Origin: Brevundimonas sp. | Lineage (GTDB): Bacteria > Pseudomonadota > Alphaproteobacteria > Caulobacterales > Caulobacteraceae | Assembly (NCBI RefSeq): GCF_036402095.1 | Contig: NZ_DASWTO010000055.1 | Coordinates: forward strand, 9,045 to 73,044 | Reading direction: 5' to 3' | DNA: 64,000 nt | Shown: piece by piece, positions 40,275 through 55,956 of the stretch | How the letters are laid out: each line of letters starts with the position of its first letter | Numbering within the stretch: position 1 is the first letter of the stretch | Notes under the pieces: model-generated | The model's input: the letters and a program-made list of their open reading frames with translations, nothing else | What the model was told of the DNA's origin: nothing | Databases searched by the model: none | Made by a program: the position numbers and the translations under genes

Positions 40275-41977
40275 AGCCAGGTCTCGCCCTCGAAGCGATC
40301 GAGGACCTGGGTCAGCCGGTTTCGGGCATGCTCAATGTCGCGCGGGTCCTGGCGGTCCAGAACGCTTTCGAACTCGCGGATCTGGTCGGCGATGAAGGCC
40401 CGCTGGTCCCCGAGGGACTCCTCGTAACAGCGGTTGGCGCGGCTCATGGCCGCCTTGTTGGCGTCGCTGTCGCGCGGGTGCTGTTTGAGAGCGGCCAGGG
40501 CCAGGCGCCGCTTTTCGAAATCGGCGTCAGCCATGACGGCCTCATCGGCGATGACGAGCTCGCGCTTTTCCCCGGTCTTCGGGATGTGGACATCGACTTC
40601 GAGCAGGCCGTTGATGTCGTAGCTGAAACGGATTTCGATCTGCACGCTGCCCAGCGGGCCGGCCGGGATCGGCACCTCCAACTGGCCGAGGAGGATGTTG
40701 TCCGCCACGTTACGGGACTCACCCTGGTAGACCGGGATATTGACCATGCGCTGATTGGCGGCGGCGTTCTGGTAGTACTGGACCCGGCTGGCGGGAATGA
40801 CGGTGTTGCGCTCGATGATCGGGGAAAAGGCGATCCCCAGCGAGCGACCGGCGGCATCATGCTCGCTCGCGCCGACCCCCAGGCTGTAGGGGCAGACGTC
40901 GGTCATGACGACTTCCTTCAACGCCACGTCGCGGGCCTTCAAACCGGCCTGCACGGCGGCGCCCACGGCGACGGCCTCATCCGGGTTAACGGCGTTGGCG
41001 GGGAAGCGGCCGAACATGCGCGTGATGGCGCGGCGCACGATCGGCATCCGCGTTGACCCTCCGACGAGGATGATCTCGGACAGGTCCTCGGCCCGCAGAT
41101 TGGCGTCGCGCAGAGACCGAAGAACCGGGTCGCGCAGGCGGGTCAGCAGCCCTTGGCAGAGGGCCTCGAAATCATCGGCGGTCACTTGCCGTTCGAGGGC
41201 CTTGTCCTTCCAGATGACCGTCATGGTCGCCGAAGGATGCTCGCTCAGGGCCCGGCGCGCGCGTTCGGCGGCGGCCCGGATCCGCTCGCGCAACAGGGGA
41301 TCGGACCGATCCTTCTCCGGGACATCTTTTCCGGCTGTCCGGCGGAATTCCTCCGTCAGAACGTCGTTGAAGTCCTCTCCGCCGAGACGGTTGTCACCGG
41401 TCGAGGCGCGGACTTCGATGATGCCCTCGAAGATTTCCAGCACCGAGACGTCGAACGTCCCGCCGCCGAGGTCGAAGACGAGGAACCGGCTCGCGTCGCC
41501 CAGCTCGTGGATGCCGTAGGCGAGGGCCGCGGCGGTGGGTTCGTTCAGCAGGCGCTCGACTTTCAGCCCGGCGAGCTCGCCCGCGCGTCGGGTCGCCTTG
41601 CGCTGCTTGTCGTTGAAATAGGCGGGGACGGTGATGACGGCCTCGGTGACCGGTTCTCCGAGAAACGCCTCCGCATCCGCCTTGAGCCGGGCGAGCACCA
41701 GAGCCGAAAGCTCTTCGGCCGTGAAGCTCCTCTTGCCCAGCTTCGTGATCCGGCTTGAGCCCATGTAGCGCTTGAAGGCGGTGGCGGTCAGCTCGGGATG
41801 GGTTGATTGCCGCTCGCGAGCGGACAGGCCGACCATCAGCTCGCCGGAGGTTTCATCGAAACTGACCGCCGATGGCGTGAGGACATGGCCGAGGCTGTTC
41901 GGGATCAGCTCCGCCTTGCCGTCGCGAAAAATGCCGACCGCGCTGTTGGTCGTGCCCAGATCGATGCCGATAATCAC
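40271..41977 (-). CDS. Hsp70 family chaperone, short HscC-like form
   Basis: IGIDLGTTNS, VITVPAYFNDKQR, LLNEPTAAALAYG and VFDLGGGTFDVS motifs. It is about 568 aa from the GTG at 41977 and lacks a DnaK-like C-terminal tail. Confidence 0.88.
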   Translation of the reverse strand: MIIGIDLGTTNSAVGIFRDGKAELIPNSLGHVLTPSAVSFDETSGELMVGLSARERQSTHPELTATAFKRYMGSSRITKLGKRSFTAEELSALVLARLKADAEAFLGEPVTEAVITVPAYFNDKQRKATRRAGELAGLKVERLLNEPTAAALAYGIHELGDASRFLVFDLGGGTFDVSVLEIFEGIIEVRASTGDNRLGGEDFNDVLTEEFRRTAGKDVPEKDRSDPLLRERIRAAAERARRALSEHPSATMTVIWKDKALERQVTADDFEALCQGLLTRLRDPVLRSLRDANLRAEDLSEIILVGGSTRMPIVRRAITRMFGRFPANAVNPDEAVAVGAAVQAGLKARDVALKEVVMTDVCPYSLGVGASEHDAAGRSLGIAFSPIIERNTVIPASRVQYYQNAAANQRMVNIPVYQGESRNVADNILLGQLEVPIPAGPLGSVQIEIRFSYDINGLLEVDVHIPKTGEKRELVIADEAVMADADFEKRRLALAALKQHPRDSDANKAAMSRANRCYEESLGDQRAFIADQIREFESVLDRQDPRDIEHARNRLTQVLDRFEGETWL

Positions 41978-42067
41978 GCGTATCCCCCGAACGCCACTCG
42001 CTTTATTCCCTAGCTTGATGGGAAGACGGGTGGAAGTGCGCTGGCGACACGCTCTGTCATTGGGCGT

Positions 42068-42547
42068 ATGACGCCGCCGATGGAACGACCCTTCTGGCAA
42101 ACCAAGCGCCTTGAGCAGATGACGCGCGAGGAATGGGAAAGCCTGTGCGACGGCTGTGGTCTGTGTTGTCTCGTACGGTTTGAGGACGAGGACACGGGCG
42201 AGGTCGTGCCGACCCGCGTACATTGCAGGCTGTTCGATCCCGTGCGCTGCACCTGCTCAGACTACGCCAACCGGCGGGAGCATGTGCCTGACTGCATCAA
42301 GCTGACCCCCTGGAACATCGAGGCGCTCGAGTGGATGCCGAAGTCCTGCGCCTACCGTCGCATCCACGAGGGACGGCCCCTGGCCGACTGGCATCCGCTG
42401 GTGTCGGGCGATCCGGAGAGCGTGCATGAAGCCGGCGTATCGGTACGCGGGCAGACGGTTTCGGAACTGGCGCTGCGGGACCCCGAGGATGCGCTCGATT
42501 TCGAGGCGCCGGAATGGGCGGCCGAACGGGGCGGAAAGCCGCGCTAA
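42068..42547 (+). CDS. ycgN: YcgN-family (UPF0260) cysteine-cluster protein
   Basis: [26 protein letters not shown]...CRLFD...CTCSDY pattern. Confidence 0.85.
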
Positions 42548-42984
42548 CCGAAGTCTCGTTGTTCATCCGCACAATGCCGGGATCGCAACCTCCGCCCGCG
42601 AACGTGCAACGGGAGCAGGTCGAACGGCGCTGGCGGGGGGGCATGACGATCATGTCGGGAGCCCATCCAGGTGGCGGAGCTGTTGCGGGTGATCGCTGCA
42701 CGGCTGGGACAGCGGGCGGCGGACCGGGACGGCGCCACGGCGCCTGACCGTGACGCTGTGCTTACCTTTCGGGAATCTATAGTCGGATTGGCGAGATGAA
42801 ATTTCGCAAAATCAGTCACTTAGCGATTTCTCGAGTCAATGTTTCATCCTGAGAACGCTGTGGGCGCATAATGTGGGAACGTCGGAGAGACAGGTGAGCG
42901 TCCCCATCGCGTAGGGGAGGGGCGCGCCTGGGGCCGACCTGAGCTGAGCCCTCCCCGCGCGCGGGCGCCACACCGGAGATCACC

Positions 42985-44145
42985 ATGCTGAACTGGCGGC
43001 GCCCCTTCGGGGGGCGGCGGAGCGTCGTTGCGCCCGAGATCAAGGATAGCCGGGTCGGCCCCCTGATCGCCCTGACCAGCGCAGGGCGTCCGCGGTGGAC
43101 GCCGAGAGACTACGCCAACCTGGCGAACGAGGGCTTTGCCCGGAACGCCGTGGCCTACCGCTGCGTGCGAATGGTCGCCGAAGCCGCGGCGTCGACGCCC
43201 CTGACCGTCTTCATCGACGGGGCCAGACGCGACGATCATCCGCTGGCGAGATTGCTGGCGCAGCCAAACCCCGAGCAGTCGGGCACGGAATGGCTGGAGG
43301 CGCTGTACGGCGGCCTGCAAACGGCGGGAAACGCCTATGCCGAGGCCGTGGGGGAAGACGCGCCCGCAGAGCTTTGGGCGCTGCGGCCGGATCGGGTGAA
43401 GGTGGTCCCGGGGCGCGCGGGCTGGGCCGAAGCCTATGAGTATTCCGTCGACGGCCGCTCTCTGCGGATCGGTCGGCAGGCGGACGGCTGGATGCCGGTG
43501 ATGCAGCTGAAGCTGTTTCATCCGACAGACGATCACTACGGCTTTTCACCGCTCGAGGCGGCGGCGTCGGCGATCGACGTGCACAACGCATCCAGCGCGT
43601 GGAACAAGGCGTTGCTGGACAATGCGGCGCGGCCCAGCGGGGCGTTGGTCTACGGCTCCAAGGATGGTGAGCGGCTGTCGGCTGAGCAGTTCGAGACCCT
43701 CCGGTCACAGATCAACGAGAGCCACGCCGGCACAATCAACGCGGGGCGTCCGATGCTTCTCGAAGGGGGGCTCGACTGGAAGCCGATGAGCTGGACACCC
43801 GCCGACATGGATTTCATCGCCGGGAAGCACGCGGCGGCGCGCGAGATCGCCCTGGCCTTTGGCGTCGCGCCCCAACTGCTCGGCATCCCCGGCGACGCGA
43901 CCTACTCGAACTACCGCGAAGCCAACGCAGCCTTCTGGCGCGGCACAGTCGCGCCGCTCGCGAGAAAGACGGCTGCCGCGCTGACCGGATGGCTGGGCGG
44001 TCGGTTCCCGGGAGCAAGGATCGAGGCCGATCTGGACGGCGTGCCGGCGCTGCAGCCGGAGCGGGACGCGCTGTGGGCACGCCTGGAGGCGGCCAGCTTT
44101 CTGACGAACGAAGAGCGGCGGCGCATGGCTGGAGTAGGATTGTGA
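42985..44145 (+). CDS. HK97-family portal protein (GTA g3)
   Basis: 386 aa. YRCVRMVAEAAASTPL..., HPLARLLAQPNP and GIPGDATYSNYREA motifs. RBS GGAGA at 42975-42979. Confidence 0.92.
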   Translation: MLNWRRPFGGRRSVVAPEIKDSRVGPLIALTSAGRPRWTPRDYANLANEGFARNAVAYRCVRMVAEAAASTPLTVFIDGARRDDHPLARLLAQPNPEQSGTEWLEALYGGLQTAGNAYAEAVGEDAPAELWALRPDRVKVVPGRAGWAEAYEYSVDGRSLRIGRQADGWMPVMQLKLFHPTDDHYGFSPLEAAASAIDVHNASSAWNKALLDNAARPSGALVYGSKDGERLSAEQFETLRSQINESHAGTINAGRPMLLEGGLDWKPMSWTPADMDFIAGKHAAAREIALAFGVAPQLLGIPGDATYSNYREANAAFWRGTVAPLARKTAAALTGWLGGRFPGARIEADLDGVPALQPERDALWARLEAASFLTNEERRRMAGVGL

Positions 44146-44366
44146 TGGATATGCGGAAGGTTCCGGTCGCGGTCATCGCGGCGCTGGCGGTGCAGACCGC
44201 CGGGGCCTTGGTGTGGGCGGGCGGGGCCGCGGCCCGGATCGCCACCCTGGAGGACAGGGTGAGCGAGCATCGTCAGGTGGCGGAGCGGCTTGCGCGGCTG
44301 GAAGAGCAGAGCAAGGCCACGAGGGCCGCCGTCGAGCGGATGGAGACGAGGATGGAGCGGGGCTAG
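44145..44366 (+). CDS. small GTA protein (g3.5-like), one TM plus coiled coil
   Basis: TGATG coupling to the portal gene. 73 aa with a hydrophobic N-terminus and a charged helical tail. The position matches RcGTA g3.5. Confidence 0.5.
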   Translation: MDMRKVPVAVIAALAVQTAGALVWAGGAAARIATLEDRVSEHRQVAERLARLEEQSKATRAAVERMETRMERG

Positions 44367-44821
44367 CGCGACGGCCTCGGACGCGGCTCACGGTCGCAGT
44401 CATCGGCGGTCAGCCGGAAGGTCCCATAGTTGCGGCCGATGTTGGCGCCAAGCGGATCGGACGACCGGCTGATGAGGTCGAGGGTCATGACGCCGCCGGG
44501 CGTGAGTGCGCCCTGCCCGGCGTTGCCCCAGCCGTCGACGAAAGTGAAACGCAGCGTTCCATCACGACCCATGCGGGCGGGCTCGTCCTCAACGTGAAGG
44601 ATTTCCTGACTGTCGGGCATGGCGTTGGTGAAACTGATCAAGGTCTGACCGTTGCGCGCTGCGACCCGGGCCCGCATCGAGAAGTCGCCCAGGGCAAAGG
44701 TCTCGCGACCGGTGTCCGCGACCAGTGGCTCGACCAGACAATAGTCACCCGGAGCGATCGGCGGAACCGAGGCGCAGCCCGCCAAGCCTGTGACAATCAT
44801 GGAGACAGGGATGAGGCGCAT
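44363..44821 (-). CDS. hypothetical lipoprotein inserted antisense in the GTA cluster
   Basis: Lipobox MRLIPVSMIVTGLAG|C. It is the only protein-like ORF in the 453-bp g3.5/g4 gap. It shares CTAG with the g3.5 stop and CATG with the g4 start. I saw no obvious SD. Confidence 0.5.
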   Translation of the reverse strand: MRLIPVSMIVTGLAGCASVPPIAPGDYCLVEPLVADTGRETFALGDFSMRARVAARNGQTLISFTNAMPDSQEILHVEDEPARMGRDGTLRFTFVDGWGNAGQGALTPGGVMTLDLISRSSDPLGANIGRNYGTFRLTADDCDREPRPRPSR

Positions 44822-45302
44822 GGCCCAACGCTATCATGATGTGGCGTCGACCGAAGGAGCAGAGGGCCTGCGAATCGCCGGGTACGCCTCGCTATGGGGC
44901 GTGGCCGATCTCAACGGCGATGTCATCGCGAGGGGCAGCTTCGCGGCCAGCCTGGCCGCGGGCGGCGCGCAAGGGGTTCGGATGCTGCACCAGCACGAGG
45001 GACGGTCGCCGGTCGGCGTTTGGGATGAAATGTTCGAGGACGACCGCGGCCTGCGGGTGCGAGGTCGGATCATGGACTGGTCAGCCGAGGCCCGGTTCGC
45101 GCAGGCGCTGTCGCGGGCCGGAGCGCTGGACGGGTTATCGATCGGGTTCCGGAGTCAGCGTGCGCGGCGCGAGGGACGGCTGCGGATTCTGGTGGAAGTC
45201 GAGCTTTGGGAGGTGTCGCTGGTGACCTTTCCCATGCTGCCCGCGGCGCGCTTCAAAGTGAGGCCCACGACAGCAGAGGAGCGAGTCGCTGCCCGCCAGT
45301 AG
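44820..45302 (+). CDS. HK97-family prohead protease (GTA g4)
   Basis: IAGYASLWGVADLNGDVIARGSF..., HQHE and LDGLSIGF...WEVSLVTFP motifs. Confidence 0.85.
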   Translation: MAQRYHDVASTEGAEGLRIAGYASLWGVADLNGDVIARGSFAASLAAGGAQGVRMLHQHEGRSPVGVWDEMFEDDRGLRVRGRIMDWSAEARFAQALSRAGALDGLSIGFRSQRARREGRLRILVEVELWEVSLVTFPMLPAARFKVRPTTAEERVAARQ

Positions 45303-45306
45303 CGGC

Positions 45307-45705
45307 TCAGGGGCTTTGGCGGCCCGAAAGTCGCGCGATCTCGCTCTGCGGAACGACGCGCGCGACCTGGACATTGCAGGTCCGCAGGAGGGTCGCGTGA
45401 CTGCGGATGTCCAGGTGAGCCGGGTCACCGATGCAGACATCGGCGTTTTCCGGGCCGACCGGGCGCAGGCCGATGCTCACCTCACCGGACGGACCGAGGC
45501 AGGCGGCTGGGCCGGTCAACAGGAGGGCTTCACCACTGTCGACCCTGACATATGCGCCGGCGCCGGGATCCAGCTTGATCAGCCGGGCCTCGCCCGCCGA
45601 GAAGCAACGGCGGGCCCCTGAGGGCGCACCCGTCGGTGCTTCGCTCCCCACGGGAGCGCAGCCTGTGACGATGAGCAATGTCGCGAGTGTTCCAACCAGG
45701 CGCAT
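45307..45705 (-). CDS. hypothetical Cys-rich lipoprotein inserted antisense in the GTA cluster
   Basis: Lipobox LLIVTG|C and a strong SD (AAGGAG) 7 nt upstream of the ATG. It ends 4 nt from the g4 stop (convergent). Confidence 0.6.
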   Translation of the reverse strand: MRLVGTLATLLIVTGCAPVGSEAPTGAPSGARRCFSAGEARLIKLDPGAGAYVRVDSGEALLLTGPAACLGPSGEVSIGLRPVGPENADVCIGDPAHLDIRSHATLLRTCNVQVARVVPQSEIARLSGRQSP

Positions 45706-45781
45706 AGCCGCACTCCTTCAGGTTGAGTAACCGTCGAACTGTCACACGCCGCCGCGGCCGGGTCAACAGGACTGGCCCCCG

Positions 45782-46564
45782 TCATGACGGGAAGGCGCGA
45801 GCCTTCTTCGTGCTCAACGCTTTCGCGGCATGCGTGAGAGCGGTCCTGGCGGCGGGCTTTCGGAGGATCGCGCCGAGCCAGATCGCAGCGACGACCACGA
45901 AGATGAAGGAGACCCGAAACAGGATCACGGCGAGAAGCCCGGCGACCGCCACGGCAAGCCAGATTCCGGTCAGGAGCGACTTGAGTTGAGGGGTCGAATG
46001 GGGATCGAGCGGCTCGCGTAACATCGCATCCAGATCCGAGGCCGGATCTTCCTGCAAACGCTCCAGCGGCCCACGGTTGACGAGGGGACGGGTCCCCGGG
46101 CTCCCCTCGACGGGCTCACGATCCTGATGCTGATGGAGCGCCAGCAGGGGGCTCGGTTTCATGAGGGCGGCGGGATCGAAGGCGATGGACTCGCCCTGAT
46201 CGTTGAGGGTGAAGACCTGCTCGAACGGAGTCTGGGTGAAGTCGATCGCCCGGGTGTCCTGGCCATAGGCGTCGCCAGGGAGGGCGAGGAGTCGGCCGTT
46301 CCTGAGCTCGACCTGGAAGGCGATCGGATCGGGCAGACCGCCGACCATGGCGTGGACCGTCCCGAAGCGACCGGTGGCCCGCTCATCCGACAGGGGGCGG
46401 CGCGAGCTGACGATGACTTCGCTGAACAGGCCGGAGCCTGTGTTGCGGCGGGTGCCCGGCAGGCTTTCCTCGAACTGGCCGGCGAGGTCCGGCGCGACGT
46501 GGCGCAGGTCGTGAGCCATGGCGGCCATGACCTCGCGTTCGAGCCTGGTGAATCGGGGGCTCAT
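45782..46564 (-). CDS. hypothetical membrane protein inserted antisense in the GTA cluster
   Basis: About 260 aa from the ATG at 46564. A soluble N-terminal domain of about 200 aa is followed by two TM helices (LLTGIWLAVAVAGLLAVILF and FIFVVVAAIWLGAIL). Third codon positions are consistently G/C. The start is uncertain. Confidence 0.55.
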   Translation of the reverse strand: MSPRFTRLEREVMAAMAHDLRHVAPDLAGQFEESLPGTRRNTGSGLFSEVIVSSRRPLSDERATGRFGTVHAMVGGLPDPIAFQVELRNGRLLALPGDAYGQDTRAIDFTQTPFEQVFTLNDQGESIAFDPAALMKPSPLLALHQHQDREPVEGSPGTRPLVNRGPLERLQEDPASDLDAMLREPLDPHSTPQLKSLLTGIWLAVAVAGLLAVILFRVSFIFVVVAAIWLGAILRKPAARTALTHAAKALSTKKARAFPS

Positions 46565-46685
46565 CCGGCGACCGCGCCGAGCGCTGCCAGGCGAACGCTG
46601 CGGTGGCGCAACGAGATCTTCTGCAGGGGGCGGCTCACGCCCCGATCCTAACCGCATCCCGCGGTTCCTGAAACCTGGAGACACC

Positions 46686-47936
46686 ATGAAAGAGACCAAG
46701 ACGGCCTCGGGCACCCCCGAGGCGCGCGCCGCCATGCACGAGATGATGGCGGCGTTCGAGGCATTCAAAGGGGCGAATGACGCCCGGTTGGATGAAATCG
46801 AGCGCAAGTCCACCGCAGACACGCTGCTGGAGGAGAAGGTGGCGCGGATCGACCAGGCCGTGAGCAGCGCCCAGGCGCGGCTGGATCGTGTCGTGAGCGA
46901 GGGGCGACGTCCCGGCATCGGCGCTGATGCGACGGGCCGGTTCGCCGTGTCGCGGTCCGACTCCACATTCCATGGGGAGGAGAAGGCCGCGTTCGACGGG
47001 TACCTGAAGTCCGGCGCCTCGTTCGGCCTCGAGCTGAAGGCGGGACTGTCGACCGCGTCGAACTCGGCCGGCTATGTCGTGCCCGAACAGACCGAGCGAG
47101 CCATCGAGCGGCGGCTGATGGCCGGCTCGCCGATGCGCGAGATCGCGAGCGTGCGGACGGTCGGATCCGGGATGTTCAGAAAGCCGGTTTCGACTGCCGG
47201 GCTTGCCGCGGGCTGGGTCGCGGAAACGGCGGCGCGGCCGGAGACGGACCCGGCGACCCTGGCCTTGCTGGAGTTCCCGTCTGCCGATCTGTACGCCAGT
47301 CCCGCGGCCACGCAGAGCCTGCTCGACGACGCTCTGATCGACCTGGACGAATGGCTGGCTTCCGAGGTCGAGGATGCGTTCGCCGCGCAGGAGACCAGCG
47401 CCTTCGTGACCGGCGACGGCGTCAACAAGCCCAAGGGATTCCTCAGCTACGACATCGTCGCGGAGGCGAGCCATGAGTGGGGCAAGATCGGCTATGTGGC
47501 CTCGGGCGCCGCAGGGGCGTTCGCAGCGTCCAGCCCCACGGATCGTCTGATCGATCTGATCTATGCGCCGAAGGCCCGGTACCGGCCGAACGGGCGCTTC
47601 GTGATGAACCGCAGGACCGTGTCGGCGGTGCGAAAATTCAAGGATAGCGACGGAGCGTATGTCTGGCAGCCGGCGCAACGGCCGGGAGAAACCGCCAGCC
47701 TGCTGGGGTACGCCGTCACCGAGATCGAGACCATGCCCGACGTGGGGGCGGACGCGGCCGCGATCGCCTTCGGCGATTTCCAGCGCGGTTACCTGATCGT
47801 AGACCGCGCCGGCGTCCGCGTGCTGCGGGATCCGTACTCCGCCAAGCCCTACGTGCTCTTCTACACGACCAAGCGGGTCGGCGGCGGCGTGCAGAATTTC
47901 GACGCCATCAAGGTTCTGAAGTTCAGCGCAACCTAG
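46686..47936 (+). CDS. HK97-family major capsid protein (GTA g5)
   Basis: An N-terminal delta-domain coiled coil and then the capsid body (GYVVPEQ, FVTGDGVNKPKGFL, YVWQP, RVGGGVQNFDAIK). RBS GGAGA lies upstream of the ATG at 46686. Confidence 0.92.
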   Translation: MKETKTASGTPEARAAMHEMMAAFEAFKGANDARLDEIERKSTADTLLEEKVARIDQAVSSAQARLDRVVSEGRRPGIGADATGRFAVSRSDSTFHGEEKAAFDGYLKSGASFGLELKAGLSTASNSAGYVVPEQTERAIERRLMAGSPMREIASVRTVGSGMFRKPVSTAGLAAGWVAETAARPETDPATLALLEFPSADLYASPAATQSLLDDALIDLDEWLASEVEDAFAAQETSAFVTGDGVNKPKGFLSYDIVAEASHEWGKIGYVASGAAGAFAASSPTDRLIDLIYAPKARYRPNGRFVMNRRTVSAVRKFKDSDGAYVWQPAQRPGETASLLGYAVTEIETMPDVGADAAAIAFGDFQRGYLIVDRAGVRVLRDPYSAKPYVLFYTTKRVGGGVQNFDAIKVLKFSAT

Positions 47937-48082
47937 TCGCCAGCAGGCATGGCCGGGTGGGGGGCGAGAGATCGTCGCTCACCCAGGCTCCCCAGGTGAA
48001 GCCGGCGACGGCAGGAGTGGGTCGAGCGGGTGCTCGAGTTCGTGCGTCCTCCCAAGCCCCCATTGAGCAAAGCGAGACACAG

Positions 48083-48349
48083 ATGACCGCACCGGTGTCC
48101 CTCACCGAGGCGAAGCTGTTCCTGCGCGTCGACCACGACGCCGAGGACGCGCTGATACAAACCCTCATCGACGCGGCCCAGGAAAGGGTCGGGCAAGATG
48201 TGGGTCTGGTGCTGACGTCGACCTCGCCCGCGCCCTTGCGGCTCGCGATCCTGATGCTGGCCCTGCGCGCCTATGAGCGTGGCGAAAGCGAGATGCCGAT
48301 CCAGCCTGTAGAAGCCTGGATCGCACCTTATCGCGTGGTGCGGTTGTGA
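48083..48349 (+). CDS. head-tail connector protein (GTA g6)
   Basis: VSLTEAKLFLRVDHDAEDALIQTLIDAA is typical of gp6-like connectors. Confidence 0.75.
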   Translation: MTAPVSLTEAKLFLRVDHDAEDALIQTLIDAAQERVGQDVGLVLTSTSPAPLRLAILMLALRAYERGESEMPIQPVEAWIAPYRVVRL

Positions 48350-48639
48350 GGGTGTTGGCGGGCCTGTTCGAGGGACTGGAGAGTCAGACGCCCTACGGCG
48401 GGCGGGCGGTCCACTGGGAGCCCTTGGGATCTGCGTGGCTGAAGGTGGGGCCGCGACGGAGGCGCGAGAAGAACGAGCCGGGCGGCGCACGGATCGTCGA
48501 GATCATGACAGCCGAAGCCCGGGCCGATGCGCGTCTGCTTCCGGAGCGGGTGCTGAGGTTCGGCGGCGCCGACTGGCGGATCCGGTCGTCCGAGACAGTG
48601 GGCGGGGCGGCCATCCTGAATCTGGAGCGGACGACATGA
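48346..48639 (+). CDS. head-tail adaptor / head closure protein (GTA g7)
   Basis: GTGA coupling to g6. Size, position and the ...WA.v.p... pattern are consistent with a phage head-tail joining protein. Confidence 0.7.
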   Translation: MRVLAGLFEGLESQTPYGGRAVHWEPLGSAWLKVGPRRRREKNEPGGARIVEIMTAEARADARLLPERVLRFGGADWRIRSSETVGGAAILNLERTT

Positions 48640-49040
48640 GCCATGAACTGGCCCTGCAGAAGGCGCTGATCGCGCACCTCGCGGAAGACGCCGGAATTCG
48701 CGCAGTGCTGGGCGATCCGGCCCGCATCTGGGATGCCGCGCCGGACAGGCCGACCTTTCCTCACCTGCTGGTCGGGCGATCGGAAAGCCGGCCGGTGAGA
48801 GCGGACGGAGGTGGTGTCGAACATGCGCTGACGCTGACCGCCGTTTCGCGCTTCCGCGGCACGGAAGAAGCCAAGGCCATCTTGGCGGTGCTGCGACTGA
48901 CGCTGACAGATGCGGTCCTGGCGGCGGACGGCGTGCGCACGGTCAGCCTCAGGGTCACTTTCGCCGACGTCTATCCGGCGTCCGACGGGCTGAGGACATT
49001 CGCGGTGCTGCGTGTGCGCGCCGTAACTGAGGAGGACTGA
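48636..49040 (+). CDS. DUF3168-like tail completion protein (GTA g8)
   Basis: ATGA coupling to g7. LQKALIAHLAEDAGIRAVLGDPARIWD...FPHLLVG pattern. Confidence 0.72.
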   Translation: MSHELALQKALIAHLAEDAGIRAVLGDPARIWDAAPDRPTFPHLLVGRSESRPVRADGGGVEHALTLTAVSRFRGTEEAKAILAVLRLTLTDAVLAADGVRTVSLRVTFADVYPASDGLRTFAVLRVRAVTEED

Positions 49041-49041
49041 A

Positions 49042-49452
49042 ATGGCGGCGCAACGCGGCAAGGACATCCTGTTGAAGATCGAGGGCGCGCCGGGGGTCTT
49101 CACCACCGTCGCAGGCCTTCGGGCCCGGACCCTGTCCCTGAACGCCCGGACAGTGGACGCAACCGATGGCGACAGCGCCGGCCGGTGGCGCGAACTGCTG
49201 GACGGCGCAGGCGTGAAGTCGGCTGCCGTGGCCGGTCAGGGCATCTTCCGCGACGCGGCTTCGGACGCGCTGATCCGCGAGACCTTCTTTGACCAGACGG
49301 CGCGGACCTGGCGGTTGATCGTGCCCGATTTTGGCTCACTCGAAGGCCCGTTCCTGGTCGCCGCCCTCGAGTACGCCGGCGAGCACGAGGGAGAGGCGAC
49401 GTTCGCGATCAGCCTGGCCAGCGCCGGTGAACTGACGTTCGGCGCCGCGTGA
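49042..49452 (+). CDS. major tail protein, TP901-1 family (GTA g9)
   Basis: GKDILLKIEG...FTTVAGLR...L..N and a C-terminal ATF.ISL.SAGELTF. RBS GAGGAGG at 49029-49035. Confidence 0.85.
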   Translation: MAAQRGKDILLKIEGAPGVFTTVAGLRARTLSLNARTVDATDGDSAGRWRELLDGAGVKSAAVAGQGIFRDAASDALIRETFFDQTARTWRLIVPDFGSLEGPFLVAALEYAGEHEGEATFAISLASAGELTFGAA

Positions 49453-49745
49453 TGCACGCCAATGGTGCGAGAGGCGAGGTGGTCGCGATGTTGGCAGGGG
49501 CCGAGCGGCGACTTTGCCTGACCTTGGGCGCTCTGGCGGAGATGGAGACGGCGCTGGGTTGCGACGGGCTGCTCTCGCTCGCAGAACGGATGCGGGCGCT
49601 GTCGGCCAAGGATCTGACAGCGATCCTTGCAGCCCTGCTGAGAGGTGGCGGCGAGGACGCTCTGGCCAGCGAATTGGCCTACGCTCTGGTCGACCCCTGC
49701 GAGGCGGCTGAGGCGGTGGCCCACGCATTCGCCGCCGCGGCATGA
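49449..49745 (+). CDS. GTA tail assembly chaperone-like protein (g10)
   Basis: GE..A.LAG.ERRLCLTLGALAE.E is a pattern conserved in GTA g10. It is coupled at both ends. Confidence 0.72.
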   Translation: MMHANGARGEVVAMLAGAERRLCLTLGALAEMETALGCDGLLSLAERMRALSAKDLTAILAALLRGGGEDALASELAYALVDPCEAAEAVAHAFAAAA

Positions 49746-49918
49746 GGACGCCCTGGGCGTCAATGATGCGCGCGGCCGCGCATCTGGGCGTGGGTCCCGA
49801 GGCTTTCTGGCGGCTGTCGCTGAAGGAATGGCGAATGCTGACCGAGACCTCCTCGGCGCATGCGCCGCTGGGACGAAGCGAGTTCGAGCGAATGGCGGAG
49901 GCGTGGCCCGATGACTGA
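49742..49918 (+). CDS. small phage tail assembly chaperone-like protein (GTA g10.1), 58 aa
   Basis: Not in the supplied ORF track because it is under 60 aa. Translated by hand: MRTPWASMMRAAAHLGVGPEAFWRLSLKEWRMLTETSSAHAPLGRSEFERMAEAWPDD. ATGA overlap with g10 and an 8-nt overlap with g11. The P..FW.LSL.EW pattern matches the rcc01693-type family. Confidence 0.65.
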   Translation: MRTPWASMMRAAAHLGVGPEAFWRLSLKEWRMLTETSSAHAPLGRSEFERMAEAWPDD

Positions 49919-50438
49919 CGAGCCTGGAACAGGGGGCGTGGATTCCATGCCGCGGCGGGTGGCCGAGGCCGCGGCGGCGCTGGACGGGCTCCGGGAGCCT
50001 GCCGAGCGAGCGGCGGCGTCGATCGAGAGCGCCTTTGACCGGGCGGGCTCAAGCCTGACGCGATCCCTGGCTCGGGCCGCCGCCGACGGCGAAGTCTCGC
50101 TGGCGGAGCTGGCGCGCGCCGTGCTTGCCGCCGTCAACGCGGCAGCCGGCGGCCGGGCTGGAGGTTTGTCGGGCGCCATCGCCCAGGCGGCGGGTTCGAT
50201 CTTCGCCGGCGCCCGGGCGGAGGGCGGGCCGGTTGCGGCAGGCGGAGCGTACCTTGTCGGCGAGCGCGGACCGGAACTGTTTCGGCCAGGCAGTTCCGGT
50301 GTGATTGACCCGCCGGCCGCGGGGAGCGTGACGGTCAACGTCCTCATCGAGGGCGGGGCGGAGGCCTTGCTGAGATCGGAGGCGCAGATCGCACAGGCGC
50401 TGGCGCGGGCGGTCTCCCTCGGCGCACGTCGGCTCTAG
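49911..50438 (+). CDS. short tape measure protein (GTA g11)
   Basis: Ala/Gly-rich helical protein ending ...YLVGERGPELFRPG..G.I. The GERGPE motif is typical of tape measure C-termini. 175 aa from the ATG at 49911. Confidence 0.65.
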   Translation: MTDEPGTGGVDSMPRRVAEAAAALDGLREPAERAAASIESAFDRAGSSLTRSLARAAADGEVSLAELARAVLAAVNAAAGGRAGGLSGAIAQAAGSIFAGARAEGGPVAAGGAYLVGERGPELFRPGSSGVIDPPAAGSVTVNVLIEGGAEALLRSEAQIAQALARAVSLGARRL

Positions 50439-50495
50439 TCGGAGCGGCGAAGTCGCGCGCCCCGGCGCCGGGCTCAACATCCAGGAGATATTGTC

Positions 50496-51122
50496 ATGGC
50501 GTTTCACGAAGTGAGGCTGCCTGCCCGCCTGGCGTTCGGATCCACCGGCGGCGTCGAGCGGCGCACCGAGATCGTGACGCTGGGCTCGGGCTTCGAGCGG
50601 CGATCGACACCGTGGGCGCAAGGACGAAGGCGCTACCTGATCGGTGCGAACCTGAAGTCTCTCGACGACATGGCGACCTTGACCGCGTTCTTCGAGGCGC
50701 GTTGCGGACGGCTGTACGGGTTCCGGTTCAGGGATTTCGTGGACTTCAGATCCTGCGAGCCGAGCGGAACAATCACGCCTGTGGACCAGCCCCTGGGCCA
50801 TGGGGACGGGATGCGGAGGACGTTCGAGCTGAGTAAGCGATACGGCGAGGAAGACGCTGTGACGCGGCGAATCCACAAGCCCGTCGAAGGCACCGTCAGG
50901 CTCGCGGTCGACGGCGCTGAACTGGAAGGGCCGGCTTTCGAACTCGACCTGGCGACGGGCGTAGTCACTCTCGCCGTTGCGCCTGCCGCCGGTGCGGCGG
51001 TCACCGCCGGATACGAGTTCGACGTCCCAGTCCGCTTCGATGCCGACAGGGTGGACGTGACGCTTGAGAGTTTCGCGGCTGGCCGGATGGCTGCTGTGCC
51101 CCTGATCGAGGTGAGGGTCTGA
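50496..51122 (+). CDS. DUF2460 distal tail protein (GTA g12)
   Basis: MAFHEVRLP..LAFGS.GG.ERRTEIV.L.SG.E.R...W...RR.Y is the TIGR02217-type N-terminus. RBS AGGAGA. Confidence 0.85.
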   Translation: MAFHEVRLPARLAFGSTGGVERRTEIVTLGSGFERRSTPWAQGRRRYLIGANLKSLDDMATLTAFFEARCGRLYGFRFRDFVDFRSCEPSGTITPVDQPLGHGDGMRRTFELSKRYGEEDAVTRRIHKPVEGTVRLAVDGAELEGPAFELDLATGVVTLAVAPAAGAAVTAGYEFDVPVRFDADRVDVTLESFAAGRMAAVPLIEVRV

Positions 51123-51125
51123 AGC

Positions 51126-51779
51126 ATGCGCGACATACCGGTCGAACTGGCGACCCGCGTCGAGAGCGGGGCGTCCACCCTGTGCCATGCCTGGTTGCTG
51201 AGGAGGGCCGACGGCGTCGAGGCGGGTTTCACCGATCACGACCGAGATCTGAACGTCGGCGGCGTCCTTTGCCTGGCCGCCAGCGGATGGATGATCGGGG
51301 CGACGGAAAGCTCAGTCGGCCTCGCAGCGGGTTCGGCGGCCGTGGCCGGTGTCCTGGACGATGTTTCGATCCGGGAATCCGACATTGCGGCGGGCTTGTA
51401 CGATCGTGCGGAAGTCGCGCTGTGGCGAGTCGATTGGCGCCGTCCCGACCTGAAGGTTCGGCTGTGGCTCGCGGGGTTGGCGCGGATTCGCCGCGAGGGC
51501 GAGAGCTTCACCGCCGAGCTGGAAGGGCCGATGGCGTCCCTGGAACGCGTGGTTGGCCGAACCTACGGCCGTGACTGCGACGCCCAGTTCGGGGATGAAC
51601 GATGCAAGGTTGATCTGGGGGCCTTCCCCGGCGCGCAGTGTGACAAACGATGGGGCACCTGCGTCGGCGAGTTTGGAAACGGCGGCAACTTCCAGGGCTT
51701 TCCGGACATCCCGGGTGACGACTTCATTACGGCCGCACCGGTGCAGGGCGGACGCAATGACGGACGGAGCCGACGATGA
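51126..51779 (+). CDS. DUF2163 baseplate hub protein (GTA g13), apparently shortened
   Basis: TLCHAWLLRRADG...GFTDHDRDL and the C-terminal CDKRWGTC..F.N..NFQGFPDIPGDDF. It is 217 aa, against my recollection of about 290-300 aa for typical homologs. Confidence 0.78.
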   Translation: MRDIPVELATRVESGASTLCHAWLLRRADGVEAGFTDHDRDLNVGGVLCLAASGWMIGATESSVGLAAGSAAVAGVLDDVSIRESDIAAGLYDRAEVALWRVDWRRPDLKVRLWLAGLARIRREGESFTAELEGPMASLERVVGRTYGRDCDAQFGDERCKVDLGAFPGAQCDKRWGTCVGEFGNGGNFQGFPDIPGDDFITAAPVQGGRNDGRSRR

Positions 51780-52240
51780 GGGCGCGCTCGGTGGCTGCGG
51801 CGCGCGACTGGCTTGGTACGCCCTACCGGCATCAGGCCAGTTTGCAGGGTCAGGGCGCGGATTGTCTCGGCCTGGTGCGTGGCGTGTGGCGGGAGCTGTT
51901 CGGGGTCGAGCCGCAAGCCGCGCCGCCTTACCAGCCGGACTGGGCTGAGGTCGGAGGCGAGGAAACGCTGCTGCAGGCCGCGCGGCGCTGGATGACGGAG
52001 ATTCCCGTCGAGAGCGCATGCGCCGGCGACGTACTGCTGTTTCGCATGGCGTCCGGCAGTCCGGTCAAGCACTGCGCGATCATGAGCGAGGGTTCGATGG
52101 CTGCCCAATCCCAACCGCGCATGATCCACGCCTATTGGGGCCGGTCCGTGGTCGAGAGTTGGCTCGGATCATGGTGGCGGCGACGGGCGGTGGCGGCATT
52201 CGCCTGGCCGTCCCGCAAGATTGAGCGAAAGGTCGGCTGA
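51776..52240 (+). CDS. NlpC/P60 family cell-wall peptidase (GTA g14)
   Basis: WLGTPYRHQ....G.GADCLGLVRGVW includes the catalytic Cys motif, and there is a later HCAIM. ATGA coupling. Confidence 0.85.
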   Translation: MRARSVAAARDWLGTPYRHQASLQGQGADCLGLVRGVWRELFGVEPQAAPPYQPDWAEVGGEETLLQAARRWMTEIPVESACAGDVLLFRMASGSPVKHCAIMSEGSMAAQSQPRMIHAYWGRSVVESWLGSWWRRRAVAAFAWPSRKIERKVG

Positions 52241-55200
52241 TGGCGCAGGTTGTTCTGGGCGGCGTCGGCGGGGCGATCGGCGGAGGGGTCGGACGCGCCT
52301 TGGGCGCGACCATCGGCGGCATGCTCGACCAGGCGCTTGTCGCCGGACTGCAACCCGCGCGCCAGAAAGGCCCGCGGCTGGGTTCACTGGCTTTGCAGGG
52401 CACGGCGGAAGGCGCGCCGCTGGCTTGCGTGTTCGGGCGTGCGCGAGTCGCCGGGCAGGTGATCTGGGCCGCGAGCTTTCTGGAAGGACGCAACACCACG
52501 CCGGCAGGCAAGGGCGGCCCCCGTACTGTCGAATACGCCTACTCTCTGAGCTTCGCCGTCGCCTTGTGCGAAGGGCCCATCGACGGAATCGGCCGCATAT
52601 GGGCCGACGGGCAGCCCCTGGACCTCGCGGGCGTCACGATGCGACTGCATCACGGAACAGAAAGCCAGACGCCCGACCCCCTGATCGAGGCCATCGAAGC
52701 GGACGCCCCGGCCTATCGTGGCACGGCCTATGTCGTATTCGAGGATCTGCCGTTGGGGCCCTATGGCAACCGGTTGCCGCAGCTGGCTTTCGAGGTCTTC
52801 CGGCGCCCACGCGGTTCAGATCCACGACTGGAGGAACGGCTGGAAGGCGTCTGCCTCATCCCGGGCGCAGGAGAGTTCGTCCTTGCGACTGAGGTGGTGC
52901 TGCGGCGGGAGGGACTGACGCGAACCACGCCCGAGAATGTCCATGCCGGCGACGGACGGACCGATCTCGCCGTGTCCCTCGATCAGCTACAGGCCCAGGT
53001 TCCGAATCTGAAACGGGTGAGTCTGGTCATCGGGTGGTTCGGTGATGATCTCAGGGCCGGCCAGTGCAGGATTCGCCCGGGCGTGGAACGTGCTGACAAG
53101 CCGACCGAGCCCATGGCCTGGACTGTCGCCGGCCTGGCGCGCGCCGACGCCCACCTGATCTCACAGAGCGGAGGCGGACCGGCCTACGGCGGCACGCCTT
53201 CGGACCAGAGCGTGCGGCAAGCGGTCGCCGAACTGAAGGCGCGTGGTCTCGAGGTGACGCTCTATCCATTCGTGTTCATGGATGTGCCGCCGGGGAACAG
53301 CCTGCCAGATCCTTACGGAGGTCCGGAGCAGGCGCCCTATCCTTGGCGGGGGCGCGTCTGCGGCGGGGACGGACCCGCAGCGGATGCGGATATCGCGGCG
53401 ATCTTCGGCGCAGCGGACGACTGGGGATTGCGGCGACTGGCGCTGCATTATGCCGCGCTTGCGGCTGAAACCGGCGCGGACGGGTTGTTGATCGGCTCCG
53501 AGATGCGCGGCTTGGGCTGGACCCGCGACGCTGGGGGAGGATTCCCGGCGGTTGCGGCGTTTCGAGCCCTGGCGGCGGAATGCAGGGTGGTGGTCGGTCC
53601 AGGCGTAAAGCTCTCGTACGCCGCCGACTGGTCGGAATACGCCGGATGGCGCGACGGTGGCGACGTGGTGTTTCACCTCGACCCGCTGTGGGCGGATCCG
53701 AACATCGATTATGTCGGCGTGGACTGGTATCCGCCGCTCGGGGACTGGCGATCAGGTGCGGGCGGCCTGGACGGGCAAGCGTTTACAGGCCCGGATGATC
53801 CGGCCGGTCTGGCGGCGCAGGTCGCCGGCGGTGAAGGCTTCGACTGGTATTATGCCTCGGCGGCGGACCGGGCTGCCCAGGCGCGTACGCCGATCGTCGA
53901 CACGGCTTACGGAGAGGACTGGGTTTTCCGGGTCAAGGACCTGGCGGGCTGGTGGTCGCACGCACATCATGACCGCCCGGGTGGGGTTCGGACGCTTGAG
54001 CCCACGGCCTGGACGCCCGGCATGAAGCCGATCCGGCTGACGGAGTTCGGATGCCCCGCGGTCGACCGAGGCGCGAACGCGCCGAACCTTTTCCAGGATT
54101 CCAAGAGCGCCGAGAGCGGATTGCCACCATTCTCAACGGGGAGTCGGGACGACCGCATGCAGCGTCGGGCGCTTGAAGCCGTGCTGGGCCATTTCGCCGA
54201 ACCCGCCAACAATCCTGTTTCACCGATATACGGCGGTCCCATGCTCGAGAGCGCGGACGCCTGGTGTTGGGATGCGCGCCCGTGGCCGGCGTTTCCCGCC
54301 AGATCAGAAGTCTGGAGCGATGCGTCAGGGTGGCGCACGGGGCATTGGCTGAATGGTCGGTTGAGCGGTGAAACCCGTGACCTGATCCGTGAAATCCTGA
54401 AGCGCGGCGGCCTGTCCGAGACAGATTTCGAGATCGGGACGCCCCCGGGAGAGGTGCAGGGCTATGTCATTGACCGGCCGATGCGCACGCGTGACGCACT
54501 GGAGCCCTTGCTGGCGGGCCTCGGCATGGTCGCGGCGGAACGGGGAGGTCAGGTTGCCATCATCGGGAATGAATCGGCCGTACGTGTTCTGACTTCCCAG
54601 GCCCTGGCCCTTCCGGCGAGCGGCGCGAGCGTGCGGGCCGATCGGCAGCTCGAGGCCCGGCCCGGAGCGGCTCGCGTGAGGTTCATAGACGGGGCGTCGG
54701 ACTATCAGACCGGGGCGGCGATCGTCCGGACAGCGGGAGAGGGTGGCGGGGTCGACATTGACCTCCCAGCTGTCTGCCCGCGCGCTCTCGCCCAGGCTAC
54801 GGCGGCACGACTGCTCGAAACAGGCCGCGAAGATCGGCTCGTCGTCGCCTTGGGGCCCCTGGAGGCTTTGTCGCTGGAGCCCGGTGACGCTGTTCTCGTC
54901 GACGGGCATGGAGAATGGCGAACGGTCCGGGTGGACATGGACGAGATCCCCTCCGCCGTCCTCGAAAGGATGTCGAGGCTGCGGGTCGGTGAAGACGAAG
55001 GAACGCCGTCTTCAGGAGATGCCGCGACAACGATGGGCCCGCCGTTTCTTCGGATGATCGATCCGCCTCCGCTGCCTGGCGCCGAAGACGATCGACGACC
55101 GATCGCGGTGGTCGCCGCCGAGCCGTGGCGGCCGATGCGAGTGTTCGCCGGACCTGATGCGACGAGCCTGACTGTGCGAGGCGATGTGGAGGATCCCGTG

Positions 55201-55956
55201 ACCGTCGGCATCCTGGCTTCGCCGCTGGCTTCTGGGGTTCGGCACCGCTGGGACGAGCGAAACGCCCTGTACATCCGGGTCGAAGGACGAGCGCCGGAAA
55301 GTCTGTCGATCCCCGCGGTGCTGGCCGGCGGAAACACGCTGGCCGTGGAGACGGGGTCGGGCTGGGAGATCGTCCAGTACCGCGCCGCCGAACTCGTCGG
55401 CGCCGACCTCTGGCGTCTGACGGGCCTGTTGCGGGGACAGCAGGGCACAGAAGAGGCGACCGCAGCCGGTGCGGAGGCCGGGGCGATCGTCGTGTTCCTG
55501 GCGGCCACAATGCCGAGGATGGAATCGCCGTCGGCCGAACTCGGATTGCCTCTCGTCTGGCGAGCGGGGCCAGCCGGGGCGCCGGCCGGCGGTCCAGGCG
55601 CCAGCGAAACTGTCTTCACTCCGGCCGGGCGACATGACCGGCCGTGGAGCCCCGCCCATCTGCGTTGTGCTGTCCGCGGGGACGGCGGCTTCGATCTGAG
55701 CTGGCTGGGGCGCAGGCGCATTGACGGCGATCGCTGGGATGGAGAGCCTGCGACTTCCGATCCCTCGCGATACCGGATTGGCGTCCTCAGGGCCGGAGCC
55801 CTGGTTCGCGTGTTTGAAGTCGACACCGAGGCCGCGACTTACGCGGGAACCGACGCCGCCGAGGACTTTCCCGGCGGACTTGCCGGCGCGGAGGTGGTCG
55901 TGGCTCAATGGGGCGATCGTTACGGCTGGGGCGCCGAAGCCCGCGTCAGACCATGA
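52240..55956 (+). CDS. GTA host-specificity / tail fibre-baseplate protein (g15, TIM-barrel-like plus phage-tail domains)
   Basis: 1238 aa. The N-terminus MAQVVLGGVGGAIGG...GPRL..L.....EGAP...VFGR.RV.GQ.IWA is typical of g15 homologs. TGATG coupling to g14. Confidence 0.9.
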   Translation: MAQVVLGGVGGAIGGGVGRALGATIGGMLDQALVAGLQPARQKGPRLGSLALQGTAEGAPLACVFGRARVAGQVIWAASFLEGRNTTPAGKGGPRTVEYAYSLSFAVALCEGPIDGIGRIWADGQPLDLAGVTMRLHHGTESQTPDPLIEAIEADAPAYRGTAYVVFEDLPLGPYGNRLPQLAFEVFRRPRGSDPRLEERLEGVCLIPGAGEFVLATEVVLRREGLTRTTPENVHAGDGRTDLAVSLDQLQAQVPNLKRVSLVIGWFGDDLRAGQCRIRPGVERADKPTEPMAWTVAGLARADAHLISQSGGGPAYGGTPSDQSVRQAVAELKARGLEVTLYPFVFMDVPPGNSLPDPYGGPEQAPYPWRGRVCGGDGPAADADIAAIFGAADDWGLRRLALHYAALAAETGADGLLIGSEMRGLGWTRDAGGGFPAVAAFRALAAECRVVVGPGVKLSYAADWSEYAGWRDGGDVVFHLDPLWADPNIDYVGVDWYPPLGDWRSGAGGLDGQAFTGPDDPAGLAAQVAGGEGFDWYYASAADRAAQARTPIVDTAYGEDWVFRVKDLAGWWSHAHHDRPGGVRTLEPTAWTPGMKPIRLTEFGCPAVDRGANAPNLFQDSKSAESGLPPFSTGSRDDRMQRRALEAVLGHFAEPANNPVSPIYGGPMLESADAWCWDARPWPAFPARSEVWSDASGWRTGHWLNGRLSGETRDLIREILKRGGLSETDFEIGTPPGEVQGYVIDRPMRTRDALEPLLAGLGMVAAERGGQVAIIGNESAVRVLTSQALALPASGASVRADRQLEARPGAARVRFIDGASDYQTGAAIVRTAGEGGGVDIDLPAVCPRALAQATAARLLETGREDRLVVALGPLEALSLEPGDAVLVDGHGEWRTVRVDMDEIPSAVLERMSRLRVGEDEGTPSSGDAATTMGPPFLRMIDPPPLPGAEDDRRPIAVVAAEPWRPMRVFAGPDATSLTVRGDVEDPVTVGILASPLASGVRHRWDERNALYIRVEGRAPESLSIPAVLAGGNTLAVETGSGWEIVQYRAAELVGADLWRLTGLLRGQQGTEEATAAGAEAGAIVVFLAATMPRMESPSAELGLPLVWRAGPAGAPAGGPGASETVFTPAGRHDRPWSPAHLRCAVRGDGGFDLSWLGRRRIDGDRWDGEPATSDPSRYRIGVLRAGALVRVFEVDTEAATYAGTDAAEDFPGGLAGAEVVVAQWGDRYGWGAEARVRP

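Follow-up and report, generated by a model that had tools for sequence, protein, structure and literature searches.

Antisense envelope-protein genes in a variable slot of the gene transfer agent head module of Brevundimonas

Gene transfer agents (GTAs) are usually pictured as streamlined, domesticated structural operons. The stretch of Brevundimonas sp. DNA analysed here (contig NZ_DASWTO010000055.1, positions 9,045 to 73,044; 64,000 nucleotides, hereafter the window) carries a GTA cluster of the RcGTA type, in which the genes for the prohead protease (g4) and the major capsid protein (g5) are separated by two genes on the opposite strand, memA and lipoB, encoding a predicted inner-membrane protein and a predicted lipoprotein. 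Instead of being fixed, this junction varies across the genus, where it accommodates dozens of small genes, mostly for envelope proteins and lying on the strand opposite to the GTA. This pattern is best explained if the g4-g5 junction has served for a long time as a cargo slot in the GTAs of Brevundimonas and of other Caulobacteraceae. As for memA and lipoB themselves, the balance tips towards accessory cargo resembling the morons of prophages, with a role at the cell envelope, expressed while the GTA is off and overrun by the anti-terminated operon once the GTA is on. The initial annotation of the window had proposed that the head-on arrangement, if both sides are expressed, would be a regulatory architecture different from the single-operon model. 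That architecture is not new, because an antisense gene in the same slot (CCNA_02873) and read-through of the operon, mediated by GafZ, have already been documented in the sister genus Caulobacter (PMC9632790; PMC11150451). What is new is that the single antisense gene noted there extends to a general feature: the slot is a genus-wide hotspot with many cargo families, there is a second slot in the same head module, and memA has a domain with a predicted fold that finds no match in the PDB or BFVD and is confined to the slot in its membrane-anchored form.

A variable junction between the protease and capsid genes

In the window, 1383 bp separate the protease stop codon from the capsid start codon, and they are filled by exactly two open reading frames (ORFs), memA and lipoB, both on the minus strand; the coordinates, spacings and Shine-Dalgarno sequence originally given for them were all confirmed to the base. 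Both genes are conserved in relatives, memA in 374 homologue clusters (full length, 49-75% identity, the named ones all from Brevundimonas) and lipoB in 40 (nearly all of 132 aa, 63-98% identity, all of Brevundimonas type). As regards their distribution, memA lies between the capsid and protease genes, divergent from the former, in 51 of 51 species-representative genomes and in 22 of 22 IMG/VR contigs, and lipoB occupies the same slot in the nine contexts examined (9/9), with or without memA. Since every copy found is inside a GTA head module, the two can be discarded as ordinary housekeeping envelope genes scattered over unrelated loci, an outcome that had been contemplated at first. Among these loci there is a record labelled Roseibacterium beibuensis (L169, GCA_025000125.1), with memA and lipoB in a Brevundimonas-type GTA locus with the same flanks, which may be mislabelled or contaminated.

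What did not survive the comparison is the notion of a fixed two-gene cassette. In a sample anchored on the capsid gene, and hence unbiased towards memA, 73 loci retained both flanking genes: 36 of them contain memA, one contains lipoB alone and 36 contain neither. The length of the slot ranges in this sample from 45 nt to 3 kb (the longest across all loci reaching about 4 kb), and eight junctions are essentially empty (45-237 nt). Even relatives with capsids 93-94% identical to that of the window can have an empty junction of 92-113 nt between apparently intact flanking genes. The memA-anchored loci, for their part, provide 69 distinct slots of 530-3994 bp. memA is found without lipoB in most loci, and lipoB without memA in four (L004, L006, L007 and L176). 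A capsid tree built from 117 distinct loci implies at least 14 changes in the presence of memA, compared with about 31 when the labels are shuffled, and the eight empty slots represent eight separate events. In the clade nearest to the window, loci with both genes, with memA alone, with lipoB alone and with neither are all represented, which means that the two are not obliged to occur together and that the GTA cluster as such can do without them.

The rest of the cargo is diverse, with more than 25 families besides memA and lipoB. In the memA-anchored slots, the recurrent ones are two secreted proteins (found in 14 loci and in 9, respectively), a membrane protein with multiple passes (8 loci), a FecR-domain protein (5 loci) and several small membrane proteins and lipoproteins; around 90% of the cargo genes are antisense to the GTA. 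In a first census, all the recurrent credible families had a signal peptide or membrane helices. Slots devoid of memA carry other antisense cargo, including cytoplasmic P-loop kinase-like and HIT-like proteins, so the envelope theme is strong, although not absolute. Prophage morons (e.g., HK97 gp15, lambda bor and lom, and the cargo hotspots of P2-like phages) offer a point of reference: they sit as additional genes within a late structural operon, present in some and absent from other syntenic relatives, and unneeded for particle assembly, and many of them encode small membrane proteins or lipoproteins without known family. Presence and absence among syntenic close relatives is precisely what the slot shows, over lengths of 45 nt to about 4 kb.

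The products of memA, lipoB and lipoC

memA and lipoB are genuine genes and not chance ORFs of GC-rich DNA. Their GC contents at the three codon positions (0.70/0.49/0.83 for memA and 0.71/0.59/0.77 for lipoB) resemble those of the neighbouring genes, in line with the good coding bias first attributed to them. In pairwise comparisons with relatives, the ratio of non-synonymous to synonymous divergence (dN/dS) is 0.14-0.22 for the N-terminal domain of memA (hereafter N-domain) and 0.31-0.58 for its membrane part, while mature lipoB gives 0.16-0.38, the corresponding values being 0.07-0.09 (up to 0.14 in one locus) for the capsid and 0.10-0.19 for the protease. These substitution patterns indicate purifying selection on both genes. 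At synonymous sites, the N-domain and the capsid gene have diverged to a similar extent.

The early proposal that memA combines a soluble N-terminal domain with two C-terminal transmembrane helices was supported by both hydropathy and modelling. The protein comprises a conserved N-domain (residues ~1-140), a poorly conserved linker (~141-190), a two-helix membrane hairpin (~192-234) and a basic tail; the hydrophobic stretch covers residues 193-239, and the full-length AlphaFold2 (AF2) model places the helices at 192-216 and 220-234. Because there is no signal peptide and the C-terminus is positive, the N-domain is predicted to face the cytoplasm. Of 54 slot members, 52 have retained the hairpin, including those with unrelated C-terminal sequence, and the two exceptions correspond to a 126-aa stand-alone homologue of the N-domain (see below). 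In two loci (L077, 4284-5776, and L044, 3740-4435) there is a paralogue of reverse layout, with N-terminal membrane helices and a memA-like domain at the C-terminus, which in L077 stands in tandem with a normal memA.

That the products could not be assigned to any family remains true after dedicated searches. There was no family match for memA, lipoB or lipoC (a third antisense gene, treated below) in Pfam, NCBIfam, PHROGs or PADLOC, nor for memA or lipoB among the sequence profiles of the Protein Data Bank (PDB), and no similarity of memA or lipoB to structural or lysis proteins was detected by sequence. None of the three can thus be equated with a known anti-phage defence system among the PADLOC models. 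The structure search that had been recommended was successful in one respect and fruitless in the other. The N-domain could be modelled confidently from 67 diverse sequences (predicted local distance difference test, pLDDT, of 94.3) as two helices followed by six or seven strands, whereas Foldseek retrieved no neighbour of this model from the PDB (best E 0.14, TM-score ≤ 0.31) or from BFVD (best E 0.19), and therefore no family. The full-length AF2 model, built from a shallow alignment, was poor (pLDDT 64) and was left out of the fold search. The glyoxalase/bleomycin-resistance family, to which the antisense gene of Caulobacter is annotated, was also considered for memA and rejected: there is neither a match to Pfam Glyoxalase nor a glyoxalase-fold structure matching the N-domain model.

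A profile search of 1.8 billion representative proteins returned, besides the Brevundimonas type, many stand-alone proteins (115-125 aa) in which the match is limited to the N-domain and its motifs (LE...Q...R-x-N-T-G-x-G-F...LEG...T..DF). These have no family-library match either, as neither the 20 homologues searched, along with memA, against Pfam nor the 42 searched against PADLOC gave any hit. Some of them are found in settings related to phages: between tail genes of a 48-kb phage-like contig (predicted provirus), in the cargo island of a P2-like prophage, which also contains small membrane proteins and a lipoprotein, and adjoining an integrase (predicted provirus). The 126-aa homologue mentioned above, which lacks membrane helices, is encoded antisense between the capsid and protease genes of a distant GTA-like cluster (L064 and L065, 5001-5381; capsid 63% identical, GC 0.64). 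Another 80 loci from soil metagenomes have housekeeping neighbours and no GTA genes, and provide no functional clue.

In the case of lipoB, the Shine-Dalgarno sequence AAGGAG (45713-45718) lies 7 nt upstream of the ATG, and the gene ends, convergently, 4 nt from the protease stop codon, a junction at which no unusual or significant hairpin was found. Its signal peptide, MRLVGTLATLLIVTG|C, ends in a lipobox (LIVTG|C), of which Gly15 and Cys16 are invariant in 35 sequences, as are four further cysteines (34, 69, 91 and 110); the protein is probably disulphide-bonded. The initial annotation overlooked lipoC, a third antisense gene, whose product has the signal peptide MRLIPVSMIVTGLAG|C. Both proteins conform to the pattern [LVI][ASTVI][GAS]C after a signal peptide, by which lipidation is predicted, and beyond the signal peptide no relationship between lipoC and lipoB was found. 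lipoC fills the gap between g3.5 and the protease gene, which in relatives is normally of zero length, and its start overlaps divergently, by 11 nt, the likely start of the protease gene (44811, preceded by GGAGAC at 44802-44807). Only three other homologues were found (46-83% identity): two of the three are likewise antisense between g3.5 and the protease, and the third is on a contig of 973 bp whose flanks are unidentifiable. There is, then, a second cargo slot between g3.5 and g4. In another GTA (L001, 2694-3989), two DUF805 membrane-protein genes are antisense between the tape-measure gene and the DUF2460 gene (g12), which suggests a third one.

An inner-membrane protein gene beside a gene for a Cys-containing lipoprotein, within a phage-derived element, brings to mind the Rz/Rz1 spanins, and the two-helix hairpin and basic tail of memA are also features of class II holins. 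memA and lipoB could accordingly be imagined as a lysis cassette releasing the GTA particles, spanin-like or holin-like with a lipoprotein partner. This is, nonetheless, very improbable. memA has no N-terminal anchor, periplasmic domain or periplasmic coiled coil: its N-domain is predicted to be cytoplasmic and its hairpin is C-terminal, which discards it as an inner-membrane spanin, and a spanin pair is at odds with two genes that occur singly, are missing from close relatives and are both antisense to the late operon. Class II holins are small (under about 150 aa), contain little besides two membrane helices and a charged C-terminus, and are encoded among lysis genes, whereas the hairpin of memA comes after a conserved soluble part of 190 residues, with no endolysin gene nearby and no PHROGs match to a lysis family. 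Typical outer-membrane spanins (o-spanins) are smaller than mature lipoB (117 residues), which also counts against this possibility. Furthermore, GTA lysis in Caulobacter needs LypABC, encoded elsewhere (PMC13236601).

The capsid leader and the GTA cluster of the window

The coordinates of the elements discussed are collected in Table 1. The spacer between memA and the capsid gene, of which 27 were aligned, contains a conserved capsid leader with two GC-rich stem-loops, whose arms are GGGGCG/CGCCCC (46627-46643) and AACCGC/GCGGTT (46650-46666). Hairpins are present at positions -55 to -12 in 75 distinct loci (L172, L175, L205 and L229 among them), with a mean folding z-score of -2.3 (below -2 in 49 of the 75), and other lineages have unrelated palindromes at the same position. 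Empty slots retain this leader, from which it follows that the hairpins are part of the GTA operon and set the limit of the slot on the capsid side, the insertions taking place between the protease stop codon and the leader. Within the main sequence type, covariation was no greater than in shuffled alignments, and the hairpins may act as an RNA structure or as a protein-binding site. Neither CtrA boxes nor Rfam elements were found in or around the slot.

Table 1. Features of the GTA head module in the window and predicted provirus loci with stand-alone homologues of the memA N-domain
Feature	Coordinates	Strand	Basis or remark
RcGTA-type head-tail cluster, g3 portal to g15	42985..55956	+	Pfam matches; carries the cargo slots
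Portal	42985-44145	+	
g3.5, 73 aa	44146-44366	+	
lipoC, 152-aa predicted lipoprotein	44363..44821	-	ORF; lipobox GLAG/C; between g3.5 and protease
g4 prohead protease	44811..45302	+	Pfam Peptidase_S78, E 2e-25; left slot border
lipoB, 132-aa predicted lipoprotein	45307..45705	-	Lipobox VTG/C at Cys16, homologues, invariant Cys
memA, 260 aa	45782..46564	-	Translation, homologue clusters, conservation profile, models
Divergent memA-capsid spacer, 121 bp	46565..46685	.	Alignment of 27 spacers; contains conserved capsid leader
Two GC-rich stem-loops	46627..46666	+	Just upstream of capsid ribosome-binding site
g5 major capsid, HK97-type	46686..47936	+	Pfam Phage_capsid, E 3e-88; right slot border
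Stand-alone homologue, provirus locus L062	5001-5375		
Stand-alone homologue, provirus locus L063	4983-5375		
Stand-alone homologue, provirus locus L066	27-260		

The window (GC 0.69) contains its head-tail cluster on the plus strand, and its assignment to the RcGTA type is based on the collinear set of g3 to g15 genes, including the GTA-specific TIM-barrel domain of g15 (1238 aa; GTA_TIM in Pfam, E 8.5e-128), as well as on a fixed chromosomal neighbourhood, conservation throughout the lineage and the lack of integrase and replication genes. After the capsid gene come, in this order, those for the connector, a gp17-like tail completion protein, the tail tube, GTA-gp10, the tape measure, DUF2460, the hub, NlpC/P60 and g15. 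Upstream of the cluster are a YcgN gene and Hsp70/J-protein genes. The latter pair (38388-42223, minus strand) encodes an Hsp70-like protein of 650 aa and then a protein of 628 aa whose N-terminal region is J-domain-like and which has many membrane helices. YcgN adjoins the portal gene in most relatives, and in the window it is also YcgN, and not the terminase, that precedes it (42548-42984). The terminase is not beside the portal gene in the window (42068-42985) or in most Brevundimonas loci, but it does adjoin it in one Caulobacteraceae genome (L001, 13107-14318), so the cluster is split differently between species. Upstream of the portal gene, a GC-rich palindromic leader comes after an AT-rich stretch (~42760-42850), and the ribosome-binding context of the gene, CCGGAGATCACCATG, is almost the same as that of the capsid gene; the region 42548-42984 is possibly the promoter and leader of the cluster.

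Possible function of the cargo and comparison with known systems

How could genes be used that lie head-on in a structural operon? In C. crescentus, chromatin immunoprecipitation (ChIP) by Tran and Le showed that GafZ, RNA polymerase and NusA/G/E spread from a single promoter over the entire GTA cluster, GafZ being a processive anti-terminator (PMC11150451). In Brevundimonas, the two accessory genes of the g4-g5 slot and the third one of the g3.5-g4 slot would be transcribed from signals of their own as long as the GTA operon is silent. If the mechanism of C. crescentus applied there, the anti-terminated RNA polymerase would, when the GTA is switched on, read the slot against the cargo and reach the capsid gene through the hairpin leader. 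memA would be an inner-membrane protein, anchored by its C-terminal helical hairpin, that holds a conserved domain at the cytoplasmic face, and lipoB and lipoC would be periplasmic lipoproteins. None of them would be a component of the particle, each being present or absent independently among syntenic relatives, and their role would be that of an accessory at the level of the envelope, for example blocking the entry of phage or GTA DNA or altering the cell surface.

Several observations weigh against this accessory-cargo reading, even though it is the one somewhat favoured. Deviant base composition, the other hallmark expected of morons, is absent: memA, lipoB and lipoC have GC contents of 0.66-0.69, compared with 0.68-0.69 for the portal, protease and capsid genes, and the cargo matches the host in both GC content and codon bias, which is not the case for many morons of recent acquisition. 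Neither a sigma-70 consensus promoter nor an intrinsic terminator was found in 42500-48200, which leaves the independent expression of the antisense genes as only inferred. No full-length, membrane-anchored memA and no lipoB turned up anywhere but in the GTA slot, and neither they nor the stand-alone N-domain homologue had any match in 50,697 sequenced phage genomes, a combination that agrees better with vertical descent and loss than with mobile cargo and gives room for a GTA-specific role. In the same direction, the stand-alone homologue in the slot of a distant GTA hints at a link with GTA biology older than the genus. As to the specific role, the first, although weak, conjecture would be that the cargo excludes phage or GTA DNA, by analogy with the membrane proteins and lipoproteins of prophages.

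Some of these observations suit a different view, namely that these are ordinary envelope genes, unrelated to phages or GTAs, that persist in a permissive intergenic site. There is a precedent in CCNA_02873, whose deletion causes zeocin hypersensitivity independently of the GTA, the gene conferring zeocin tolerance (PMC9632790), and host-like composition, cytoplasmic cargo in memA-less slots (P-loop kinase-like and HIT-like proteins) and the lack of phage genome matches would all be expected. Yet the families are limited to the slot and to one bacterial lineage, the cargo has a strong excess of envelope proteins, as is typical of prophage accessory genes, and homologues of the N-domain exist in prophage cargo regions, all of which makes this view unlikely.

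A better, but still minority, candidate is that memA is a dedicated GTA factor, that is, a membrane-tethered sensor or regulator of GTA production, release or producer immunity, whose antisense placement would, by transcriptional interference, keep memA and the capsid operon from being expressed together. It would account for the exclusive presence of membrane-anchored memA in the slot at every locus, for the maintenance of the domain-plus-hairpin architecture despite unrelated C-termini, and for the capsid-like synonymous divergence, which suggests co-inheritance. The homologue in the same slot of a distant GTA and the one inside a phage tail module are also in its favour, and Caulobacter provides a known case of a gene facing an operon with processive anti-termination head-on. 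On the other hand, memA is missing from about half of the Brevundimonas-type GTA loci, including the relatives with 93-94% capsid identity, its stand-alone homologues in soil metagenomes are not accompanied by GTA genes, and no regulatory domain was recognised in it (Pfam, NCBIfam, PADLOC). A bolder and rather improbable proposal would make memA a GTA-specific membrane-tethered switch or immunity factor with a previously unseen fold, which blocks, at the inner membrane, either the lysis triggered by the GTA or the uptake of GTA or phage DNA, and the slot a dedicated site where domesticated GTAs gather envelope-acting genes that help to keep the GTA selected; memA would be made only in GTA-off cells, given that the anti-terminated operon runs head-on through it.

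Whichever of these roles applies, the slot has implications for how GTAs are viewed. If the cargo benefits the host, it might help to explain the retention of GTA clusters, and if memA acts on the entry or release of GTAs or phages, it would add a new component to the control of gene transfer. Natural strains with both genes, either of them or neither are ready experimental material for this purpose.

Returning to accessory cargo as the somewhat favoured reading, envelope proteins dedicated to superinfection exclusion, such as T5 Llp, Cor, TP-J34 Ltp, P22 SieA and T4 Imm, are comparable in that they also are envelope proteins of phage-derived elements and, plausibly, in being expressed while the element is silent; however, memA and lipoB have no sequence or structural similarity to them. 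With morons, the cargo of the window shares being extra genes in a structural operon that vary among syntenic relatives. The differences are that the host element is here a non-mobile, vertically inherited GTA, that the cargo is host-like in composition and known from its genes alone, and that memA is confined to one slot and one lineage, with no movement among elements.

The nearest relative of the arrangement is that of the main GTA cluster of C. crescentus, where CCNA_02873, on the plus strand, lies between the minus-strand genes for the capsid (gtaM) and the protease (gtaN) and overlaps the 3' end of the latter (PMC11150451 Supplementary Data 1; PMC9632790). Its product, a cytoplasmic protein of 120 aa, is annotated as glyoxalase/bleomycin resistance (PMC11150451 Supplementary Data 1), in contrast to the envelope proteins of the window, where there are, moreover, two genes in the slot and a third in a second slot. 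The two differ in annotation too, as Pfam matches none of memA, lipoB and lipoC, and no glyoxalase-fold structure matches the N-domain model of memA. A second antisense gene of the C. crescentus cluster, annotated as a Vsr endonuclease, is located by the portal gene. What both systems have in common is an RcGTA-type host cluster in the same bacterial family and an antisense gene in the very same slot, with its 3' end converging on the protease gene.

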